From a virus (taxonomy: Duplodnaviria > Caudoviricetes): DNA of 64,000 nucleotides. Of the stretch, positions 4,333 to 43,231 are shown in pieces. Every line of letters begins with the position of its first letter. The first letter of the stretch is position 1. The stretch lies in the IMG/VR virus record IMGVR_UViG_2547132424_000002. The stretch is one strand, 5' to 3'. The position numbers and the translations under genes are program-made. The notes under the pieces are model-generated. The model saw nothing but the letters and a program-made list of their open reading frames with translations, did no database searches and had not been told where the DNA came from.

Positions 4333-4899
4333 ATGAGCGACACCGAAATCGATCTCAGTGGCTACGTCGACGTCGCGACCCGTATCGCCGAAGTCCGCGA
4401 AAAGATGTACCCGAACGGGTCGTTCCAGCCCGCGCGCATCGACCGCCCGTATTCGATCGAGACCATCGGCGACCAGGCGTATGTGGTTGTCGTGGCCGCG
4501 TTCTACCGCACCGCCGACGACATCATGCCCGGTATCGGGATGGCGTGGGAGCAGGTGCCCGGCCGCACCGCGTTCACCCGGGGCAGTGAGATCCAAAATG
4601 CCGAGACGTCCGCGTGGGGGCGTGCGCTCGTCGCCGCCCTGGCCGCCGACACGAAGAAGGGTGTCGCCTCGGCCGACGAGGTCCGCAACCGGGCGATCAA
4701 CGCCGCCAAGGAACTCGACCCCGCGGACCTCGCCCGCGCCGAGCTCCTCGGCCTGCTGAACCGCCGCAGCATCGAGCCCGCCGCCGCGATGGAGTGGTTC
4801 GCGCAGAACTACCCCGAAGCCGGTGACATCCGCAACAGCGCCGACAACGTCGCACTCCGCGCGGCCATCACACACTTCAGCGGCGGCGATGCCGCGTGA
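4333..4899 (+). CDS. Probable single-strand annealing recombinase (Rad52/Sak-like)
   Basis: YVDVATRI...NAETSAWGRAL motif; directly follows the RecE-like nuclease. Confidence 0.6.
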   Translation: MSDTEIDLSGYVDVATRIAEVREKMYPNGSFQPARIDRPYSIETIGDQAYVVVVAAFYRTADDIMPGIGMAWEQVPGRTAFTRGSEIQNAETSAWGRALVAALAADTKKGVASADEVRNRAINAAKELDPADLARAELLGLLNRRSIEPAAAMEWFAQNYPEAGDIRNSADNVALRAAITHFSGGDAA

Positions 4900-11073: not shown

Positions 11074-11754
11074 ATGACAAGCCCCATCGTATTTTTGGAC
11101 ACGGAGACCACAGGTCTGCATGCCGATCGCCGCGCATGGGAGATCGCGATGATCCGGCGAGCCGACGGCCACGACAGCGCTGTCACTCTCCAGGTCACCG
11201 ACGTGGATCTGTCGTCCGCCGAGCTGAAGGGTCTTCAGATCGGCGGCTTCTACGAGCGTCATCACCAGGCTGCACCGGCCGCCGACTACAAGTTCGCGCC
11301 GCTGAACCCGAAGCACCCGTACATGGGGCGAACCGATATCGACGCTTTCGTCGGCACCGAAGCCGACGTCGCCAAGGTGGTCGAGCAGGTCACCCGCGGC
11401 GCCGACATCGTCGGCGTTGTACCGAATTTCGATACCGAAACCCTGGCCGCCATGCTCCGCCGTCACGCCCTGTGTCCGTCCTGGAACTACCACCTCATCG
11501 ATGTCGTTCCACTGGCCGCCGGTTGGCTCCTGGGTGCTGCCGAGGTGTCGATGTGCGCGTCCGACGACGCGGGCGAGCCTCATTCCGAGACCGCGAAAGC
11601 CCGTCTTGCAGCAGCAGAGCTTCCGTGGAAGTCCGACGACCTGTCCCGCGCGGTCGGTATCGATCCGCCGAGCGAGGAATACCGGCACACCGCGATGGGC
11701 GACGCCGACTGGGCGAAGCGCCTGTTCGACCGGATCACCGGCAACAACTGGTGA
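11074..11754 (+). CDS. DnaQ-like (DEDDh) 3'-5' exonuclease
   Basis: FLDTETTG, NFD, HTAMGDA. Confidence 0.85.
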   Translation: MTSPIVFLDTETTGLHADRRAWEIAMIRRADGHDSAVTLQVTDVDLSSAELKGLQIGGFYERHHQAAPAADYKFAPLNPKHPYMGRTDIDAFVGTEADVAKVVEQVTRGADIVGVVPNFDTETLAAMLRRHALCPSWNYHLIDVVPLAAGWLLGAAEVSMCASDDAGEPHSETAKARLAAAELPWKSDDLSRAVGIDPPSEEYRHTAMGDADWAKRLFDRITGNNW

Positions 11755-13986: not shown

Positions 13987-14383
13987 CCAGACACGCTCCG
14001 AACACCTCACGGTGCCGACAGCAGCCGAGCGCATAGCCGGGTTGGAAACGCTCGCCGAGCGGCGCCGGATCCGTATGGCCGCGGCCGAGTTGGACGTGAC
14101 CGAGGCACGCGAACGCATCGCCGCACTCGAAGCGCAGCTGCGCGATGAGGGAAACAGGGTCGGCCGACTGGAGGATGCGCTCCGCGCCGCATGCGCTGAG
14201 GGTTCCGACGCCCGCGCCCGCCTCGATGAACTGGAGACCGTCATGTTCCGCGACGTGTCGCGCATGCTCGCCGATCTCGGAATCACCAACCCGCCGCCGC
14301 GGCTTGCTGCACTGCTGCGTGCCGAGGCCGACCAGCGGATGAGCGCGCTGACGCGCGAGCCCGAGGGAGCAGACCGTGACTGA
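13979..14383 (+). CDS. Coiled-coil hypothetical protein (MPDQT family)
   Basis: Coupled; ARERIAALE module. Confidence 0.65.
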   Translation: MPDQTRSEHLTVPTAAERIAGLETLAERRRIRMAAAELDVTEARERIAALEAQLRDEGNRVGRLEDALRAACAEGSDARARLDELETVMFRDVSRMLADLGITNPPPRLAALLRAEADQRMSALTREPEGADRD

Positions 14384-26202: not shown

Positions 26203-26307
26203 GCGTGGCCCCCGGACTGTTTGTCGCGGCCGGAGTCCGGCTGCTCGGCCAGGCCGTGAAACGCCGGTGTGAAATCAGTTCGGGGGCAGCGTCGATGATC
26301 CGCTACA

Positions 26308-26417
26308 GTGTCGGCACTTCCGGTGCGGAGATCCGAGGTTCCTTCACTTTTGGTTGAAACCGACACCTCGGGCACTTATTTCTCGGGAGCACAACTTCAG
26401 AGTGTGGTGATCGCCCG
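26308..26417 (+). ncRNA. Two candidate small stem-loop RNAs (possible further Y-like RNAs)
   Basis: Closing stems GTGTCGG/CCGACAC (26308-14/26360-66) and CGGGC/GCCCG (26369-73/26413-17), each opening with CACTT. Confidence 0.4.
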
Positions 26418-26551
26418 GTGTGTTGGAACTGGGGTTACTTCTTGCAGAGAAACGCGGGTTCGAATCCCGTCGGCGGCGACTGGTGTCGTCGTCGTGGCTG
26501 AGCGGCCTAAGGCACTTCCTCGGACCGTTTTTTCTCGGGCGATTCAGCACC
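26418..26551 (+). ncRNA. yrlA: YrlA-type Y RNA (circularly permuted tRNA mimic)
   Basis: T-arm GCGGG-TTCGAAT-CCCGT (26454-70), 10-bp acceptor-like hairpin (26471-94), then class-II-like D-arm TGGCTGAGCGGCCTAAGGC (26495-513); upstream of a Ro60 gene. Ends approximate. Confidence 0.8.
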
Positions 26552-26554
26552 TCG

Positions 26555-26665
26555 TGTGAGGGCCTGGTGCGTGGGCGGTGGATACTTCCTTGGTTGAAAT
26601 CCCTTCGGGGACTGCGGGTTCGAGCCCCGCGTGTGCCATCGCCGATCTTTCTCAGGCTCTTCACA
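26555..26665 (+). ncRNA. Second Y-like RNA with T-arm
   Basis: Outer stem TGTGA-GGGCCTG/CAGGCTC-T-TCACA; inner stem GGCGGTGG/CCATCGCC; cUUCGg hairpin 26600-11; T-arm GCGGG-TTCGAGC-CCCGC 26614-30. Confidence 0.65.
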
Positions 26666-26706
26666 CCACACTCTGGACACGTGCACCCCCTGACCAAGGG
26701 GACAGC

Positions 26707-28269
26707 ATGTCCAAGTTCAATACCGGCACCACCCGTCCCGTCGCGCACGGGCCGATCCGGACCGACACCACCGCCACCGGCACCACCTTCGAAGGTGCGC
26801 CCGGCTACGCGCGTGACGCGCAGTCTGAACTTTTCCTTCTCGCGGTGACGAACATGGTCGGCGAGGACACCTTCTACGAGCAGGCCAGCGACCGCGACAA
26901 CCGGTTCGCTACCCTCGTCCGCCAGGTCGCGCTCACCGACTTCGACTGGCTCACCCGGTTCGCGCATTGGCTGCGCACCGAGGCCAACATGCGGTCCGCG
27001 CCGATCGTGCTCGCCGCCGAGGCCGCGAAGGCGCGTCTCGATGCAGGGGAATCCGGCGGCCGCGACATCATCAAGACGGTGCTGCAGCGCGCCGACGAGC
27101 CCGGCGAGATGCTGTCCTACTGGCACACCCACTACGGGCGGAAGTTGCCGAAGCCGGTCAAGCGTGGCATCGCCGACGCAGCCCGGCGCCTATACCGCGA
27201 GCGCAGCTACCTCAAGTGGGACAGCGACACCCGCGCCATCCGGTTCGCTGACGTCATCCAGCTGACCCACCCCGATCCGGACGGCGCGCAGGCCATCGAC
27301 GACCTGTACCACTATGTCATCGGCCGCCGGATCGGTGTCGAGCATCTCTCCATCCCGGACACCCTGGCGACCCTGCGCGCCAACGCCGAGTTCAAGCGCC
27401 GCACGGGTGAAGACATCGACCGGATGGCCGCCGACGGCAGCCTGGAGCAGGTGCTCGCCGACGCAGGCATGACGTGGGAGGCACTGTCGGCGTTCGGTGC
27501 CTGGACCGCGGCGCGGTGGGAGGCGATGATCCCGTCCATGGGGTACATGGCTCTCCTGCGAAACTTGCGGAACTTCGACCAGGCAGGTGTGTCCGATGTG
27601 GTCGCGGCGACGGTCGCGGCGCGCCTGTCCGACCCGGACGAGGTGGCGCGGTCGCGGCAGTTGCCGATGCGGTTCCTGTCCGCTTACCGGGCAGCGCCGT
27701 CCCTGCGGTGGTCCTATCCGCTGGAGCAGGCGCTCGACGCATCGCTGGCGAATGTGCCGGAGCTGCAGGGCCGCACGCTGATCATGATCGACACCTCGGG
27801 TTCGATGCGCTCGGCGTTCAGCAAGGACGGAACGCTGATGCGGTGGGATGCCGCGGTGGTGTTCGGGCTGGCTCTCGCCCGCCGCTGCCAGACCGCCGAT
27901 GTGGTGTCGTACTCGAACGACGGGATCCGGTTCCAGCTCGAGCCGGGCGAATCGTTGCTACGTTCGATCGAACGGTGGAAGACCGGCGGCTACTTCATCG
28001 GCGGGGGAACCAACACCGCCGGTGTCACGCAGGCCGCGTACGACCGCCACGACCGCGTCGTCATCCTCACCGACGAGCAGGCGTCTGGGCGCGATCCGGG
28101 CGCGGTCATCCCGAAGACGGTTCCGCTGTACACCTGGAACCTCGCCGGACATCGGCTGGGACACACCGGTGGCGCACCGAACCGGCACGCCTTCGGCGGA
28201 CTGTCAGATGCCGCGTTCAAGATGATCCCCCTCCTCGAGCGGGGCCGTGATGCGGAGTGGCCGTTCTGA
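26707..28269 (+). CDS. rsr: Ro60/Rsr TROVE-domain RNA-binding protein with vWA domain
   Basis: ELF.L.......FYE, R...MRS, RADE..E, LPK.VKRG.ADA, KW, MGYMALLRNLRN, PMRFL.AY, IDTSGSM MIDAS, GGT, ILTDEQ; SD AAGGGG. Confidence 0.95.
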   Translation: MSKFNTGTTRPVAHGPIRTDTTATGTTFEGAPGYARDAQSELFLLAVTNMVGEDTFYEQASDRDNRFATLVRQVALTDFDWLTRFAHWLRTEANMRSAPIVLAAEAAKARLDAGESGGRDIIKTVLQRADEPGEMLSYWHTHYGRKLPKPVKRGIADAARRLYRERSYLKWDSDTRAIRFADVIQLTHPDPDGAQAIDDLYHYVIGRRIGVEHLSIPDTLATLRANAEFKRRTGEDIDRMAADGSLEQVLADAGMTWEALSAFGAWTAARWEAMIPSMGYMALLRNLRNFDQAGVSDVVAATVAARLSDPDEVARSRQLPMRFLSAYRAAPSLRWSYPLEQALDASLANVPELQGRTLIMIDTSGSMRSAFSKDGTLMRWDAAVVFGLALARRCQTADVVSYSNDGIRFQLEPGESLLRSIERWKTGGYFIGGGTNTAGVTQAAYDRHDRVVILTDEQASGRDPGAVIPKTVPLYTWNLAGHRLGHTGGAPNRHAFGGLSDAAFKMIPLLERGRDAEWPF

Positions 28270-29447
28270 TGCCGGTGACACAGTACGGCGAGAAGTTGCT
28301 GTCGTGGGCGGTCGAGTTCGACGGCGCCACGATCGAGCAGGCACGCCAGACCGCGAGTATGCCGTTCGTGGCCCCGCACGTCGCGCTCATGCCCGACGCG
28401 CACAGCGGGCGCGGCGCCGCGGTGGGAACCGTCATCCCCACCGTCGGCGCCGTGATCCCTGCGGCGGTCGGTGTCGATGTCGGCTGCGGGATGGCCGGGG
28501 TCGAGACCCGCTACACCGCAGCCGATATCGCCGGGAAGGACCTCGCGCTGCTGCGGGAGGCAATTGAGAAGGCCATCCCGCTCAGTCCCGGCAACTACAA
28601 CGACCGGATCGGCCGTGACCATACCGCGGAGCGGATCACCGAGTTGGAGGAGCTCGCGGCCCGCAACGGTGTCGAGCTGACGCATTCGCCGAAGTGGCGC
28701 GAGCAGCTCGGATCACTCGGGGGCGGCAATCATTTCATCGAGTTGTGCCTCGACGAACGCGATCACGTCTGGCTGTTCCTGCACTCGGGGTCCCGCGGTG
28801 TCGGGAACAAGATCGCCCAACGGCATATCAAGATCGCGCAGAAGCTGTGCAAGCAGTGGTGGATCGATCTGCCCAGCCCAGACCTCGCGTACCTCGTCGA
28901 GGGCACACCTGAGTTCACCAGCTACATCAAGGAACTCGCGTGGGCCCAGAAGTTCGCCGCCCTCAACCGGGCGGACATGCTCGACCGGTTCGCGACCGAG
29001 TTCGCGCGCTGGCTCGGCACCGACGATCACGGCGAGGTCGACCGCATAATTTCGCACCACAATTACACGCGTCGTGAGCGACACATGGGCCGGGACGTGT
29101 GGCTCACCCGCAAGGGCGCCGTCGACGCGCACGCCGGTGTCCGGTCGATGATCCCGGGCAGCATGGGCACCTCCTCGTTCGTCGTCGAGGGCAAGGGCTG
29201 TGTGCCCGCGCTGTGCTCGGCGCCGCACGGCGCCGGTCGTCGCATGTCGCGCACCGAGGCGAAGAAGCGGTTCACCGCCGAGGACCTCGCGGCGCGGATG
29301 CAGGGCATCGAGTACCGGCATGGTGAGGAATGGGTCGATGAAATCCCCGACGCCTACAAACCGATCACCGAGGTGATGGCCGCTGCGGAGCCGCTGGTTT
29401 CGGTACTGCACCAGCTACGCCAATTGCTAAATGTGAAGGGTACATAG
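28269..29447 (+). CDS. rtcB: RtcB RNA ligase (3'-phosphate/2',3'-cyclic phosphate to 5'-OH)
   Basis: MPDAH, VGVDVGCG, GGGNHFIE, HSGSRG, HHNY, RKGA, IPGSMG, SAPHGAGR, DEIP.AYK all intact; TGATG-coupled to Ro. Confidence 0.96.
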   Translation: MPVTQYGEKLLSWAVEFDGATIEQARQTASMPFVAPHVALMPDAHSGRGAAVGTVIPTVGAVIPAAVGVDVGCGMAGVETRYTAADIAGKDLALLREAIEKAIPLSPGNYNDRIGRDHTAERITELEELAARNGVELTHSPKWREQLGSLGGGNHFIELCLDERDHVWLFLHSGSRGVGNKIAQRHIKIAQKLCKQWWIDLPSPDLAYLVEGTPEFTSYIKELAWAQKFAALNRADMLDRFATEFARWLGTDDHGEVDRIISHHNYTRRERHMGRDVWLTRKGAVDAHAGVRSMIPGSMGTSSFVVEGKGCVPALCSAPHGAGRRMSRTEAKKRFTAEDLAARMQGIEYRHGEEWVDEIPDAYKPITEVMAAAEPLVSVLHQLRQLLNVKGT

Positions 29448-29451
29448 GCGA

Positions 29452-30138
29452 ATGGACACCTTGCTCCTTGAGGGCGTGGTCGGGTCGACCGCCTACGGAC
29501 TCGACCACGCGGACAGCGACACCGACTACGCCGGTATCTACCTCGAGCCCACCGAGCGGCTACTCGGTCTGCATCCGCCGAGCCGGGAGCGCGCGACCCG
29601 TAAGGGCCGTGGCGGGGCGGACGCGACCTATCACGAGCTCGGCAAGTCGATGTCGCTGATGCTGTCGTGCAACCCGACCGCGACGGAGATCTTGTGGCTC
29701 GACAATTACACCCTCACAACCGAATTCGGTGAGGAACTGATCGGGCTGCGGCAGGGTTTCCTGTCCGCGAAACGAGTCCGTGACGCGTTCTTCGGGTACG
29801 CGACCAGCCAGTTCCACCGGTTGATCGACCGCGGCCGTTTCCAGGGGTCGCTGGAGACCCGCAGAGAGAAGCACGCCCGGCACACGATGCGGCTGTTGTG
29901 GCAGGGCTACGAGCTGTACACCACCGGTGTGCTGCCGATCCGGGTGCCGGATCCGGGACCGTATTTCGAGTTCGGCCAACGCATCGTGGGCGATCCCGAG
30001 GCGAAGGCCGCGCAGGAGCTGATCACCCACTACCAGCTGAAGTTCGACGCTGCCCGCACCGTGCTGCCCGATGAGCCGGACGAGGCTCCGCTCGAGGATT
30101 TCCTGCAGCGGGTCCGGAAAGCGAACATGGCCGCATGA
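29452..30138 (+). CDS. RlaP-type (RNA repair pathway Pol-beta family) nucleotidyltransferase
   Basis: GSTAYGL....SDTD, HELGK...L...NPT..E.LW, KHA.H.MRLL..G..L..TG.L. Confidence 0.88.
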   Translation: MDTLLLEGVVGSTAYGLDHADSDTDYAGIYLEPTERLLGLHPPSRERATRKGRGGADATYHELGKSMSLMLSCNPTATEILWLDNYTLTTEFGEELIGLRQGFLSAKRVRDAFFGYATSQFHRLIDRGRFQGSLETRREKHARHTMRLLWQGYELYTTGVLPIRVPDPGPYFEFGQRIVGDPEAKAAQELITHYQLKFDAARTVLPDEPDEAPLEDFLQRVRKANMAA

Positions 30139-34031: not shown

Positions 34032-34277
34032 GTGCACAACATCACCATCGGCCGCTACAACGGCGCGGAAGGCACAGCGACCCGTGTCCGCTGCGACGAA
34101 CGTGGGAACGAGCTGTCGCGCGAGAGCTTCAAGGCTCACGCCGGATGGATCGAGGGTGTCCGCGACGACGGGTCGACGTGGATCATGTACCTCGACGGTA
34201 GCGGCAGCCCGGAATGCTTTTGGCCGCGCCGCGAGTCGGACGGTGCTGTGATCGGTGATCCGGTCCGGCTGGATTGA
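34032..34277 (+). CDS. Hypothetical protein
   Basis: GGGAG SD; high GC3. Confidence 0.65.
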   Translation: MHNITIGRYNGAEGTATRVRCDERGNELSRESFKAHAGWIEGVRDDGSTWIMYLDGSGSPECFWPRRESDGAVIGDPVRLD

Positions 34278-34520
34278 CCACCGCCGCAGCGGTGTCTGGT
34301 GGTCGGGGAGCTGCGGTAATCCCCGGCCGCCCGAAAATCTCGCGGGCCGGTTGGTCTGCGGGCTGGACAGTAAGACCCGGTGGTCTCCGGGCGGGGGAAC
34401 AGGCGCGAAGAATTGGGCACGAGCCGCCCCCGGTGGCCGCGAGACGAATCACGAGCCCGACGGGCGATGCCGATACCCGTCCAGCACGCAGACGAACCGG
34501 TCCACACCTCCGATCAACCG
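34277..34520. ncRNA. Candidate large structured RNA with possible pseudoknots
   Basis: 22-bp helix 34347-68/34479-500 with two mismatches; crossing 8-bp and 7-bp complementarities. Confidence 0.55.
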
Positions 34521-34528
34521 AGCTGACG

Positions 34529-34822
34529 ATGTCCAAGACAGACAAGACCGCACCGTTCCTGGTGAAGCTCCGCTGCGGCGATCTCGACACGGTCGAGTAC
34601 CACGATCACCGCGACGGCACGTGCGACCTGGCGGCCGATCCGGACCGCTTCGGGTTCGCTGTACGCGGCTGTTACAAGGCGTTCCACTACACGGGCACGG
34701 TGGTGTGCAGCTGCCCGATGTGCCACGGCCTCGACCCGCGCCGGACCGCGCCTCAGCGGCGGCGCAGGGAGCGGCGTACGGCGAAACAGGCCCTGCGCGC
34801 GGCCGATCCGGCGCAGTGGTGA
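34529..34822 (+). CDS. Cys/Arg-rich hypothetical protein
   Basis: MSKTDKT.PF.V...CSCPMC...RRRERR.AK. Confidence 0.65.
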   Translation: MSKTDKTAPFLVKLRCGDLDTVEYHDHRDGTCDLAADPDRFGFAVRGCYKAFHYTGTVVCSCPMCHGLDPRRTAPQRRRRERRTAKQALRAADPAQW

Positions 34823-34945
34823 GCGCGGTTCAAGTTCCGCGCCGAGGACTTGAGCCGGACGGCCCGCGTTCAAGCCCGCTTGAGAGCCTCAACTCCTAAC
34901 CATCCCCAAATTTGGCCCAAGTTTGGGGTTCGCCGAGGAGGCGTC

Positions 34946-37268: not shown

Positions 37269-37284
37269 AGTGGAGATCGTCGAA

Positions 37285-38214
37285 TTGAGAATCGCGTTTC
37301 TCGGCAACTTCCAGGTCGACTATTGCTCCGAGGTGCACCACGCGAAGTCGCTGGAGTCCCTTGGGCACACGGTGGTCCGGCTGCAGGAGACTGTCGCCTC
37401 GTCGGACGAGGTCCTCGCCGCAGGATGCGCCGCCGATCTGTTCGTGTGGGTGCATACGCACGGCTGGAACACCCCGGGCGATATCGGGGCCGCGATCCGC
37501 GCGCTCCGCACCGCCGGTGTCCCGACGCTGTCCTATCACCTGGACCGGTGGCTCGGCCTCCGCCGCCAGGCCGACATGCGCGCTACGGAGCCGTATTGGT
37601 CGCTGGATCACTTCTTCACCTGTGATGCGGCACAAGCAGATTGGCTGAACGCGCACACCAACATGCGCGGCCACTACCTACCGGCCGCCGTGTTCGGTCC
37701 GGAGTGCTACATGGCCGCCCCGCGCACCCGTTTCGATGTCGCGTTCGTCGGCAGCAAGGGCTATCACCCGGAGTATCCGTACCGGCCGAAGCTGATCGAC
37801 TGGCTGGCCTCCACGTACGGTGACCGGTTCCGGCACTACGGCGGCGGTGGCCTGCCGACCGTGCGCGGCGCCGACCTCAACGGCGTGTACGCCGACGCCC
37901 GCGTGGTGGTCGGTGACAGCCTGTGCCTGGACCCGGACTATCCGGGCATGTACTGGTCCGACCGGATCTACGAAACCCTCGGCCGCGCAGGTTTTCTCAT
38001 CCATCCGCGGCTCAAGGGCCTGGAGAACCACTTCGGCCCGGAGCATGTCGTGCTGTATGAGCACGGCGACCTCGAGCAGTTGCGCGAACTGATCGACTAC
38101 TACCTCGCCAACCCCAGCGAGCGGGAGACGATCCGGCGCGCCGGGCACGAGCATGTGAAGGCCAACCACACCTACGCGCACCGGTGGCAGACCATCCTGG
38201 AGACGATCGCGTGA
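37285..38214 (+). CDS. Glycosyltransferase (CgeB/DUF3880-like, GT-B)
   Basis: FDVAFVGS...YRPKLIDWL...DLN..YA.A.VV.GD...YWSDRIYE.LG...FLI; TTG start with GGAGA SD (GTG 37270 is an alternative start). Confidence 0.85.
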   Translation: MRIAFLGNFQVDYCSEVHHAKSLESLGHTVVRLQETVASSDEVLAAGCAADLFVWVHTHGWNTPGDIGAAIRALRTAGVPTLSYHLDRWLGLRRQADMRATEPYWSLDHFFTCDAAQADWLNAHTNMRGHYLPAAVFGPECYMAAPRTRFDVAFVGSKGYHPEYPYRPKLIDWLASTYGDRFRHYGGGGLPTVRGADLNGVYADARVVVGDSLCLDPDYPGMYWSDRIYETLGRAGFLIHPRLKGLENHFGPEHVVLYEHGDLEQLRELIDYYLANPSERETIRRAGHEHVKANHTYAHRWQTILETIA

Positions 38215-38798
38215 CCGCGGCCGAGCGCGAGCACTGGCTGTCGATCACCGACGACCCGGACTGGCGCCGCAACTACATCCACGACCCCGCGATCAGCGTC
38301 GACGAGACGGTCGCCGTGATCACCGCGGCCGCCCCGCCGCAGCCGGGCCGGATCCTGGAACTCGGTTGCGGGTACGGGCGCCTCACCCGCGAGATCGGCC
38401 GCGTGTACCCGGAAGCTGTGATCATCGGCCTGGACATCAACCCGGACGTCCTCGACGTCGCCCGCGGCTACGACCCGCGCACCACGTTCCTGTACGACGA
38501 GCGGCTCAGCCACCTCAGCACCACGCTGGACCTCATCTACTCGGTGGCCGTGTTCCAGCATCTCCCCGACGGGGAGAAGCAGGCGTACATCGCGCAGGCA
38601 TCCACCGTGCTGGACGCGGGCGGTGTGCTGCGTGTCCAGTTCATCGCCGGGGACCGCGACGACCACCTCGATCACTGGGTGCCCGCCGACCGCATGATCC
38701 GATGGGCACGGGCCGCTGGATTCGCTGATGTCTCGGTCGATGAAGGCTTGGCGCATCCGCAGTGGGCGTGGCTGACCGCGGTCAAGGCGGCGCGATGA
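38211..38798 (+). CDS. Class I SAM-dependent methyltransferase
   Basis: ILELGCGYGR, GLDIN, DLIYSVAVFQH. Confidence 0.9.
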   Translation: MTAAEREHWLSITDDPDWRRNYIHDPAISVDETVAVITAAAPPQPGRILELGCGYGRLTREIGRVYPEAVIIGLDINPDVLDVARGYDPRTTFLYDERLSHLSTTLDLIYSVAVFQHLPDGEKQAYIAQASTVLDAGGVLRVQFIAGDRDDHLDHWVPADRMIRWARAAGFADVSVDEGLAHPQWAWLTAVKAAR

Positions 38799-39607
38799 GC
38801 TTCCGCGGTCACACGACGCTCACCGCTCGTCTGGCACCGGCATACGCCGAGTTGCCCGACGTTGCGGGGTTCGCGGCTCAATTCCGCAGGGACTTCGATC
38901 TCGATGTGTTCGCTCCGGACTCCGCGGCCAAACCCGGTTACGGCGAATACGACCCGGGTCGCGACGCTGTCACCGAATCCTTGCTCGCGCAAACGGTCTG
39001 GGAGGCTCAGGAATCCACGCTGGCCGCGGATATCCTCGCTCAGACCGCTGGTGTGGTTCTGGATTTCGGGGCGCACATCGGCTGGTACACGGTGCTGGCT
39101 GCCCTGTTCGGCGCGCACCCGGTGATCGCGTTCGAAGAACACGAAGCCACCCGGGAAGTCCTGGAAGCCAACATCCGCCGTCATTCGGTGGCTGCGGACC
39201 TCCGGCCGGGCGTCACCGCATCGACCACGCCGTTCGCGCACGACAGTATCGGCGAAGTCGCGTTGATGAAATGCGACATCGAAGGCGCCGAGGACCTCGC
39301 GGTCGACGCGTGCGCTGAACTGTTCGCAGACCACCGCATCCGCTACGCGCTGATCGAGATCTCCCCGATCTTCACCGCCGACGGACGCTCGAACTGCGAC
39401 TACGTCGCGATGACCGGGCAGCTGCTCGATTGGGGATATCACCTGTTCCGGATACCGCCCAAGGGGTGGGAGCACAACGACGAATACCGGGAGCAGCCGG
39501 TTGCAACGTTGATCCGCCGCTGCGCGGTCGGCGCCGACTGGCCTGCCGTGATCGCGGGCTGCCGACAGGACAATTTCGTGTTCATCCGGAGCGAGGACGC
39601 AGCGTGA
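38795..39607 (+). CDS. FkbM family methyltransferase
   Basis: VLDFGAHIGWYT, VIAFE, LMKCDIEGAE. Confidence 0.85.
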   Translation: MSFRGHTTLTARLAPAYAELPDVAGFAAQFRRDFDLDVFAPDSAAKPGYGEYDPGRDAVTESLLAQTVWEAQESTLAADILAQTAGVVLDFGAHIGWYTVLAALFGAHPVIAFEEHEATREVLEANIRRHSVAADLRPGVTASTTPFAHDSIGEVALMKCDIEGAEDLAVDACAELFADHRIRYALIEISPIFTADGRSNCDYVAMTGQLLDWGYHLFRIPPKGWEHNDEYREQPVATLIRRCAVGADWPAVIAGCRQDNFVFIRSEDAA

Positions 39608-41564: not shown

Positions 41565-42599
41565 GTGAGGATCGGTCTGATCGCCCGCGCGGACAACACG
41601 GGCCTCGGTGTCCAGACCTACGAATTCGCGCAGCACATGCGGCCCGCGCGGGTGCTGGTCGTCGACATCAGCCACATGAAACGCAACACCCTGTTCCCGA
41701 ACCGGTACCCGGGCGCGGACATCGTGCGCGGCTTCCCCACCGAGCGGCAGTTCGCGCGCTTTCTCGACGATGTCGATGTGGTGTTCACCGCGGAGACACC
41801 GTACGGGCCGTGGCTGTACCCGATGGCCGAGCAGCGGGGCATCCCGACGGTCCAGCAGTACAACTACGAGTTCCTCGATCTCAGCACCGGATCGCCGACT
41901 GTGCTGGCCGCCCCCACCTTGTGGCGCTTCGAGGACGTCGAGCATCCGAACCATCAGCATCTGCCGGTGCCGATCGCCACCGAGCGATTCCCGCGACTGG
42001 GCCACATGCCCACCGCGACCCGCTTCCTTCACGTCGCCGGCCGCCCCGCGGTCCACGACCGCAACGGCACCGCCGATCTACTCGACGCGCTGCGCATGGT
42101 CCGCTCCCCGATCGAGGTGACGATCACCTGCCAGGACCGCCAGTACGTCGGCGGCCTGCTGTCCTCGCGAGCGATGCCAGCGAACGTGCACCTCACGGTC
42201 AAGACGATCGACGTGCAGAACTACTGGGACCTCTACACCGGCCACGACGTGCTGATCATGCCGCGCCGCTTCGGCGGCCTGTGCCTGCCGGTCAACGAAG
42301 CACTCGGCGCCGGAATGCCGGTGATCATGCCCGACGTCAGCCCGAACCACACCATGGTGCCCAGCGAATGGCTGGTACCCGCGACCAGCGGCGGCGAGTT
42401 CAAGGTCAGGCAGATGGTCGATCTGCACACCGTCGACCACCATGCCCTCGCGGACAAGATCGACCAGTTCGCCAGCGACCACGCCTTCTTCCAGCAGTCA
42501 GCCGCGACCGCGCTGGCGCTGGCCGACGTATACAGCTGGCGCGCCCTGAAGCCCCGCTACGAGCAGCTCCTGAACGCCCTGGTGCCCGCCCCGGCATGA
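41565..42599 (+). CDS. Glycosyltransferase (GT4-like, GT-B)
   Basis: FLHVAG...DRNGT, DVL.MP.RFGGL.LP.NEAL.AG.PVI. Confidence 0.88.
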   Translation: MRIGLIARADNTGLGVQTYEFAQHMRPARVLVVDISHMKRNTLFPNRYPGADIVRGFPTERQFARFLDDVDVVFTAETPYGPWLYPMAEQRGIPTVQQYNYEFLDLSTGSPTVLAAPTLWRFEDVEHPNHQHLPVPIATERFPRLGHMPTATRFLHVAGRPAVHDRNGTADLLDALRMVRSPIEVTITCQDRQYVGGLLSSRAMPANVHLTVKTIDVQNYWDLYTGHDVLIMPRRFGGLCLPVNEALGAGMPVIMPDVSPNHTMVPSEWLVPATSGGEFKVRQMVDLHTVDHHALADKIDQFASDHAFFQQSAATALALADVYSWRALKPRYEQLLNALVPAPA

Positions 42600-43231
42600 C
42601 CAGCCTGTCGTGCGCCGTCGTCGCACACACTGACCGCCTCGGCGCCGCCACCGACCTCGCCGCACTCGCTGACGCCCAGATCAGCATTGACGATGGCACG
42701 CTCGGCGCCGAAACCAATCACCTACGTGCATGGGCGATGACCCGCAACCATCCGTCTGATTGGGCGCTGGTCCTCGAGGACGACGCCCGACCGGTACCTG
42801 GCTTCACCGAGCAGGTCCACGCCGCGCTGCGGAAAGCGCCGGCGGCGATCGTGTCGTTGTACCTCGGCCGCACCCGGCCGCGCACATGGCAGCACCGCAT
42901 CGCCCAAGCCCTCGACCAAGCCGACATGCTCGACGCCCACTGGATCACCACCCACCATCTGCTCCACGGCGTCGCGGTCGCCATGCGCACCGAATTGCGC
43001 GACGACTGGATTCAGTGGGCCGCAAGCAGTGAGCTCCCGATCGATGAGCGGTTCGGCGCATGGGCCCGTGAACGCGGCCACCCGATCGCCTACGCTGTCC
43101 CGTCGCTGGTCGAGCACGCGGATTGGCCGACACTTATCCGCCACCGTGACGGCCAACCGCGGGACCAAGGCCGGATCGCGTGGCGCACTGGCACCCGAGA
43201 CATCTGGACCAGCAGATCCGTATTCATTTGA
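42596..43231 (+). CDS. Glycosyltransferase (GT-A, actinophage type)
   Basis: VVAH..R, DDG.LG...NH..AW, LVLEDDA, SLYLG..RP, PSLVEH.D. Confidence 0.8.
   Translation: MTSLSCAVVAHTDRLGAATDLAALADAQISIDDGTLGAETNHLRAWAMTRNHPSDWALVLEDDARPVPGFTEQVHAALRKAPAAIVSLYLGRTRPRTWQHRIAQALDQADMLDAHWITTHHLLHGVAVAMRTELRDDWIQWAASSELPIDERFGAWARERGHPIAYAVPSLVEHADWPTLIRHRDGQPRDQGRIAWRTGTRDIWTSRSVFI

Follow-up and report, generated by a model that had tools for sequence, protein, structure and literature searches.

YrlA, and Yrl1 and Yrl2 of the Thermus phage phiLo, are Y RNAs that tether or gate the protein Ro60 together with polynucleotide phosphorylase (PNPase), and the published Ro-binding motifs are GNCGAAN0-1G, GGUCCGA and CGAA (PMC4201824, PMC12135203). 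Here we analyse a 64,000-nucleotide (nt) stretch of DNA from a tailed phage (IMG/VR record IMGVR_UViG_2547132424_000002; Duplodnaviria, Caudoviricetes), called the window throughout, and describe at positions 34342-34505 of its + strand a conserved RNA of about 165 nt, for which the Y RNAs appear to be the closest analogue and not the family itself. Like the Y RNAs, the element looks to be a small, stand-alone RNA that is carried by phages, has its ends joined in a long stem and contains a stem-bulge-stem with CGAA, and in the window prophage, as in one relative, a Ro60 gene is encoded on its strand. Unlike the Y RNAs, which measure 80-130 nt, it has its CGAA in an inner arm, lacks T and D arms and is matched neither by Rfam nor by ARAGORN, and Ro60 was not found in most of the carrier genomes checked.

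Two other groups of phage RNAs invite comparison. The phi29-type packaging RNA (pRNA, RF00044) is also phage-encoded, about 170 nt long, built as a three-way junction and closed by a helix of its 5′ and 3′ ends, and two metagenomic copies of the present RNA adjoin terminase and portal genes. However, the present RNA has no Rfam match and no conserved interlocking loop pair, and it lies mostly far from packaging genes (in the window prophage, the terminase, portal and tape-measure genes are found from 45.6 kb onward), in carriers that are siphovirus-like and have terminases. Such phages are not known to use RNA in packaging. ROOL, GOLLD and raiA resemble the present RNA in having an orphan function, strong covariation, a frequent location in phages or prophages and no single neighbour gene, whereas these are Rfam families of 200-800 nt and the present RNA is a single three-way junction without a model match.

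The outermost part of the element is a 22-base-pair (bp) helix between CCGGTTGGTCTGCGGGCTGGAC (34347-34368) and GTCCAGCACGCAGACGAACCGG (34479-34500), which an earlier note on this DNA had reported; we found it exactly as written, and it constitutes helix P1 of a conserved family. The minimum-free-energy fold of the + strand also places this helix outermost (z = -3.09, with none of 200 shuffles as stable), and the minus strand gives z = -2.22. The conserved unit is nonetheless shorter than the RNA of about 245 nt first proposed.

When phage records were searched with blastn, the interior of the helix found matches in Gordonia phages, in gaps that carry no annotation. The second search returned 48 records, all of them Gordonia phages of the Deejayvirinae (Tanisvirus, Kenoshavirus) and Terapinvirus groups, and two further queries found no cultured hosts of the element beyond Gordonia phages. 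In total we collected 30 copies besides that of the window, from Gordonia phages of these two groups, IMG/VR contigs and metagenome contigs, the contigs being supplied by exact-motif scans. The resulting 31 sequences represent at least six lineages with 52-71% G+C, including one contig group with A+T-rich flanks whose elements have 52-53%. A looser scan followed by a covariance-model filter added the divergent member L119 (77 bits). Loose motif scans of IMG/VR gave mostly chance matches, of which the covariance model retained L055 and L119 only; the motif occurs by chance in coding DNA in L034, L036 and most of L041-L059.

A structural model (R1) was derived with RNAalifold and manual inspection, and all copies were then realigned to it. 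Across the 31 sequences, 93.6% of 1,588 cells hold standard pairs, compared with 29-45% when partners were slid and with 68.9% in column shuffles, whose counts are not probabilities because the aligned sequences are related to one another. Two-sided changes were found in 41 of the 52 pairs (25 of 25 in P1, six of six in P2, three of four in P3 and four of four modelled pairs in P6). In P5, the x:p pair (113:175) occurs as A-U 12 times, as C-G and G-C seven times each and as U-A twice, and L119, in which P4 changes from G-C to U-A and from G-U to C-G, keeps this helix paired. The case for a conserved structure is settled by the slid controls and by how many pair types occur, and judged from these alignments a real RNA family almost certainly exists. 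Furthermore, G-U and U-G cells outnumber A-C and C-A cells (152 against 26), therefore the + strand is the functional strand.

The gap upstream of the ATG at 34529 is non-coding. The low G+C content at third codon positions (GC3) that had been noticed in the open frame across it is confirmed: GC3 is 0.62 and the second-position value (GC2) 0.76, whereas five real genes of the window show 0.80-0.89 and 0.46-0.55, respectively. The frame translates into an Arg/Gly/Pro-rich filler, and between lineages the reading frame over the element changes, with indels whose lengths are not multiples of three; these observations rule out a protein-coding extension across the gap. An intron or split gene is likewise ruled out because both flanking genes are complete: the upstream protein matches gp81 of the Gordonia phage YungMoney, likewise of 81 amino acids (aa), from end to end, and the homology of the downstream protein with Asapag gp43 starts at the Met of ATG 34529.

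The element is surrounded by a prophage within a complete actinobacterial chromosome of 8.35 Mb. It occurs once in its own genome and in none of 150 genomes of the same family, and an exact-motif scan of 185,579 species genomes gave one match, by chance; therefore the element travels with phages and is phage-borne, not chromosomal. The related low-GC contigs L029 (858-1065), L028, L031, L032 and L035 repeat the opening 10-14 nt of downstream genes (ATGGCTTTAG..., ATGAGAGTATTAG...) on either side of inserted cassettes, one of which is the RNA and another a DUF2493-like gene of which sister contigs have lost progressively more; these repeats look like the product of cassette insertion by recombination at gene starts.

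Next we compared the element with known RNAs. Rfam 15, whose models include those for self-cleaving ribozymes, pRNA, 6S, tmRNA and put-like RNAs, gave no match at gathering score over the whole window. With E values up to 10, the window element and six homologous loci returned only chance-level matches (E 0.5 to 5.6, far below gathering scores), as did positions 24.5-34.4 kb of the window. ARAGORN found no transfer RNA (tRNA) or transfer-messenger RNA (tmRNA); the earlier note had recognised neither of these, nor a hammerhead, twister or riboswitch core. Literature searches by word and by sequence string gave no match to the motifs of the element, and a fragment of it could be among the 8,495 unnamed candidate viral RNAs of a bulk catalogue (PMC10690425). 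Collectively, the view that this is a previously uncatalogued RNA family is well supported by these comparisons, and the central proposal of the earlier note, an undescribed phage-borne structured noncoding RNA on the + strand, is borne out by the lack of an Rfam match together with the strong compensatory variation among homologues. Two further candidates were discarded. For mimicry of a host RNA, a blastn-short search of the core against the 8.35-Mb genome gave chance 14-15-mers only, and the complementarity of the conserved blocks to the ribosomal RNA (rRNA) operon is no better than chance; and a relationship with the plasmid-prophage origins of cluster A mycobacteriophages, which are RNA-based, was dropped on the description in the paper, which concerns cluster A parABS phages and leaves DJ and Terapin phages unmentioned, without a direct comparison to the origin RNAs (PMC7157519).

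The RNA is a three-way junction. One of its arms is P1 and another the variable hairpin P2; the third is long and runs through P3, loop A, P4, loop B and P5 to a variable hairpin, P6, as its cap. The consensus P1 has 20-27 bp and brings the 5′ and 3′ ends together in every one of the 31 members in a near-perfect duplex of at least 20 bp, followed by a junction strand of about 7 nt. In P2, some Gordonia phages (some Kenoshavirus) have an additional hairpin of about 30 nt in the loop. P3 has 4 bp and leads to loop A, GGAACN opposite G-W-(W)-R. In P4, GGCGCG pairs with CG(A)UGCC, whose A is bulged, and loop B sets AAGAA opposite CGGR. In P5, UUGGxCAC pairs with GAGpCCGA. P6 varies between a GNRA-capped stem of 3-4 bp and about 45 nt, and its loops in Tanisvirus (L001, about 1520-1540, and others) contain the pyrimidine-rich UUCCUCCUUCUCAC, which resembles the anti-Shine-Dalgarno end of 16S rRNA and is not conserved in other lineages. 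After P6 follows the single strand (G/U)CGAGACGA-N-U-A-A-N, which returns into P5; within it, CGAGACG is invariant in all 31 sequences, L119 included, and A-N-U-A-A-N mostly comes next. Overall, the junctions and loops hold about 45 near-invariant bases, and the helices that separate them vary freely.

In the kink-turn Kt-7, the bulged strand reads GGC-GAA-GAA-CC. The 5′ strand of P4 and loop B (GC-GAA-GAA-UUGG) contains this core, whereas the opposite strand, CCGA-CGGG-CG, has no G-A next to the 3-nt bulge for tandem sheared pairs in the P4/P5 register, so that the likeness is a resemblance only.

Two crossing pairings that had been proposed for the window do not belong to this structure. The first joins TCTCGCGG (34338-34345) and CCGCGAGA (34437-34444), which are indeed present and perfectly complementary; the pseudoknot itself is unsupported and private to the window. 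The longest stretch of complementarity that the GCGAGACG block shares with the 35 nt around the P1 start measures 2-6 nt in 25 other members, compared with 8 nt in the window; furthermore, CCGCGAGA sits within the invariant single-stranded block, and 34342-34346 can extend P1 instead. The second is a kissing-loop pair: the complementary 7-mers at 34284-34290 and 34310-34316 exist, but the first lies mostly in a stem of the fold and not in a loop, and 34278-34336 have no counterpart in any homologue, the closest proviruses included. An all-against-all column scan of the alignment for extra pseudoknots found nothing beyond clade noise.

The features of the locus are collected in Table 1. Directly after the downstream gene (34822-34900), an inverted repeat GGTTCAAGTTC ... 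GGACTTGAGCC is followed by the related GTTCAAGCCCGCTTGAGAGCC. Between the RNA and the terminase gene, the window has two glycosyltransferase genes (Glyco_trans_1_2; phrog_28745 and phrog_854, at 37270-38214 and 41810-43231) and a methyltransferase-like gene (38762-39607).

Table 1. Features of the RNA locus and its flanks in window coordinates; sequences of the RNA are written 5′ to 3′.
Feature	Position	Strand	Remarks
Upstream gene	34032-34277	+	81 aa, phrog_7834; complete, not split by the RNA element
Lineage-specific leader, outside the conserved RNA	34278-34341	+	Two local hairpins; holds the kissing 7-mers and the 5′ half of the proposed pseudoknot; no counterpart in homologues
Weak -10-like hexamer GAAAAT	34332-34337	+	Within the lineage-specific leader
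P1, 5′ strand	34342-34368	+	22-bp helix of the earlier note at 34347-34368; 34342-34346 can give 4 more pairs
J1/2, AGUAAGA	34369-34375	+	Unpaired junction strand, variable in sequence
P2 hairpin (CCCGG / CCGGG)	34376-34391	+	6/6 pairs with two-sided changes
P3, 5′ strand, CGGG	34392-34395	+	Pair 90:196 has six standard pair types and zero broken cells
Loop A, 5′ strand, GGAACA (family GGAACN)	34396-34401	+	Identical in 29/31; GGAAAC in L055, UAAC in L119
P4, 5′ strand, GGCGCG	34402-34407	+	Last two bases open the CGAA motif; invariant in 30 sequences
Loop B, 5′ strand, AAGAA	34408-34412	+	Invariant in 31/31
P5, 5′ strand, UUGGGCAC	34413-34420	+	Contains pair 113:175; U-G to C-G in L055
P6, variable hairpin (GCCGCC / GGUGGC in the window)	34421-34438	+	4/4 modelled pairs change two-sidedly
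Invariant single strand GCGAGACGA, then AUCAC	34439-34452	+	3′ of P6
P5, 3′ strand, GAGCCCGA	34453-34460	+	
Loop B, 3′ strand, CGGG	34461-34464	+	
P4, 3′ strand, CGAUGCC	34465-34471	+	A bulged
Loop A, 3′ strand, GAUA	34472-34475	+	
P3, 3′ strand, CCCG	34476-34479	+	
P1, 3′ strand	34480-34505	+	
Downstream gene	34529-34822	+	97 aa, Cys-rich, complete; start ATG 34529

Next, we examined how the element is placed among genes in the different lineages. In L119, it lies between two opposite-strand genes, for a head protein (phrog_240) and for phrog_34856, with a TATAAT 8 nt ahead of P1 and a U-rich run, CUUUCUAU, after it; P1 and this run together look like a terminator. In L066, the strand opposite to the element encodes both neighbours, a phrog_1042 gene and a PPE gene, and TATCGT stands ahead of P1. 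This PPE-family protein gene (1709-2722, N-terminal MDFAAIPPEINS...) is thus found in a viral contig, adjoining the antisense RNA copy. In L033, a match to an extended -10 promoter (ACGACA-16-TG-TAGAAT) ends 13 nt upstream of the element. Because two lineages have the element antisense to both neighbours and behind a -10-like box, it would be a stand-alone RNA gene and not a 5′ leader, and in L119 and L066 it is not the 5′ untranslated region of a regulated gene on its own strand, where a riboswitch would lie. The same two lineages contradict the suggestion of the earlier note that the RNA might be an antiterminator or another cis-acting leader.

The neighbours of the element are mutually unrelated. 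Among them are the Cys-rich 97-aa protein of the window and, beside the Deejayvirinae copies, phrog_6802; Terapinvirus has a Cas4-like exonuclease next to the element, the low-GC contigs have a RecA-like ATPase and nucleases, and L033 has terminase and portal. We found no fixed gene neighbour among the carriers; a phrog_1467 protein lies upstream of the element in three related prophages only and is absent elsewhere. Furthermore, six carrier genomes have no protein in common (BLASTP, 1e-8), which points to a host partner or to a function of the RNA alone.

We therefore considered what such an RNA might do, and tentatively favour, at somewhat less than an even chance, a stand-alone RNA that acts in trans by binding a conserved host factor, with the Y RNAs as its nearest analogue. 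Under this hypothesis, 34342-34505 would be the gene for a stable, structured noncoding RNA of a family found in tailed phages. Its near-invariant internal loops and the single strand GCGAGACGA would present a surface recognised by a factor that very different hosts share, most likely a conserved protein, and the RNA, like a Y RNA, would serve as a scaffold or decoy that binds protein. P1 would shield both ends from exonucleases and in some lineages may also act as a terminator stem.

Several points weigh against this explanation. Both the expression of the RNA and its protein partner are predicted, and conservation of unpaired bases as strong as this would be just as expected of a ribozyme or a ligand-binding core. 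Exact-motif scans supplied most of the homologues, which exaggerates the invariance of the first block. No convincing promoter was found upstream of the element in the window and the Gordonia phages, and in Deejayvirinae a terminator-like hairpin stands immediately 5′ of the element, with the nearest early promoter one gene further up. Consequently, the RNA of Deejayvirinae must come from read-through or processing; read-through, probably followed by excision, could account for it, the long P1 being a plausible RNase III substrate.

The hairpin in question has 17 bp and a T-run and is found in L016 (1143-1183) and at the same place in all Deejayvirinae. Because it is near-invariant while the P1 helices differ freely, a sequence-specific role beyond termination is suggested. 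In Odesza (L061, 24000-50000), we observed ten copies of an early-promoter-like repeat of about 40 nt, TACACGnCCTATAATGAGACCCC (for example at 4776-4815, 11522-11561 and 14258-14297), often followed by CCCCTATGAAAGGA and an ATG; they stand ahead of small genes in the region that separates the tail genes from the primase/polymerase gene.

There is a small chance that the RNA acts without a protein, either as a free aptamer that soaks up a universal small molecule or as a new class of small ribozyme. Such readings would explain both the near-invariant loop core across host G+C contents and the absence of a common phage protein, and if the RNA were an early-infection aptamer, for example for a nucleotide second messenger of host immunity, it would be the RNA counterpart of phage protein sponges. 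The ribozyme, self-cleaving or otherwise catalytic, with the invariant loops and GCGAGACGA as its active site, is improbable taken by itself. It would account for the near-invariant bases between freely varying helices, and several copies lie within polycistronic units. Its scattered occurrence over unrelated phages without a fixed gene neighbour is also what is usual for twister, pistol and hatchet ribozymes. However, no Rfam ribozyme model matches even at E = 10, the promoter-bearing antisense copies have no obvious transcript to process, and a closing stem of 20-27 bp exceeds what such ribozymes need.

It is similarly improbable that the element is a true Y RNA, in which the P4/loop B stem-bulge-stem with its CGAA binds a Ro60 (Rsr) of the prophage or host and tethers or gates it with PNPase. 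This idea draws on an RNA-repair-type module of the window prophage (26300-30138 including the stretch just upstream), on the same strand as the element, with a Ro60/TROVE open reading frame (ORF) at 26578-28269 (true start probably near 26647), an RtcB ligase at 28257-29447 and a nucleotidyltransferase at 29452-30138. The related provirus G153 has the element 0.8 kb downstream of Ro60, both on one strand; the host genome has a second Ro60 gene; and the RNA itself has its ends paired in a long stem and an invariant CGAAG at the stem-bulge junction. Ro60 on the same strand within about 4 kb, as for YrlA, is nevertheless not general, the distance in the window being about 6 kb, and among the carriers Ro60 was found only in these two prophages, which count as one observation because they are related. 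It was not found in eight other carrier records (G151, G152, G154, G155, Odesza, Suzy, Burley and Mossy), three of which are rated 100% complete or are complete phage genomes, and none of the 48 RNA-bearing Gordonia phages is among the Ro60-bearing phage matches listed (60 of 105 records). Furthermore, the invariant motif at the P4/loop B junction reads CGCGAAG and not GNCGAAG, its CGAAG fitting the Ro motif and its first G not, and it lies about 60 nt from the 5′ end, deep in the inner arm; ARAGORN and Rfam detect no tRNA-like T or D arm, and GGUUCRANUCC is absent. The second Ro60 homologue of the host (G000:C1:7063683-7065314, outside the window) is 58% identical to the prophage copy and has no copy of the RNA nearby. 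Finally, the window offers better candidates for Y RNAs: in an ORF-poor stretch directly upstream of its Ro60, GGTTCGAATCC at 26457 matches the tRNA T-arm motif perfectly, two further sites (26592 and 26617) match it nearly, and GGCTGAGCGGCCTAAGGC resembles a D arm. By their sequence these are likely YrlA-type Y RNAs, although neither Rfam nor ARAGORN makes a call for them.

A ligand-binding aptamer, either as a riboswitch-like leader of the next gene or as a free RNA that sequesters a small molecule, has a slim chance. A conserved core of junction and loops, variable hairpins and a closing P1 are typical of aptamers, the element lies 6-35 nt upstream of the next start codon in most copies, and in the low-GC contigs the Shine-Dalgarno sequence of the next gene is contained in the 3′ strand of P1. 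In the window and the Gordonia phages, however, it lies outside P1, and the 20-27 bp of P1 are far too stable to switch. We looked for an expression platform, as a terminator or as switchable pairing of the Shine-Dalgarno sequence, and found none: there is no terminator/anti-terminator alternative, and no terminator follows the element in the copies checked for this. The unrelatedness of the downstream genes, and the two lineages with no downstream gene on the strand of the element, also argue against a leader.

The prospect is poorer for a cis-acting element of mRNA processing or stability, in which RNase III would cut at P1 to separate the upstream and downstream cistrons or to uncover the ribosome-binding site that follows. 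Consistent with this are the near-perfect P1 duplex of every member, the co-orientation of most copies with tightly packed genes and, in Deejayvirinae, the lack of a promoter between the upstream hairpin and the element. A processing site would need neither about 45 invariant unpaired bases nor a conserved inner arm, and antisense copies with promoters exist. Processing by RNase III is moreover compatible, as a route of biogenesis, with a stand-alone RNA that binds a host factor, and so is no true alternative to it.

Finally, several copies lie in recombination or replication modules (Cas4-like exonuclease, RecA-like ATPase) or beside terminase and portal, as a DNA signal for replication, recombination or packaging in single-stranded or cruciform form might, but this is most improbable given that the one-strand excess of G-U over A-C and the invariant G-U pairs fit RNA better than duplex DNA, that the position relative to replication and packaging genes is inconstant and that promoter-like boxes stand just ahead of P1 in several lineages.

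Taken together, these results describe an RNA family carried by cultured Gordonia phages, about fifty of them in the SEA-PHAGES collection, and because these phages are genetically tractable, its function is directly testable. A core of about 45 bases that barely changes between 52 and 71% G+C implies a universal target, which may be a conserved host protein, a small molecule or a catalytic centre, and any of these would add an RNA-based function to phage biology.
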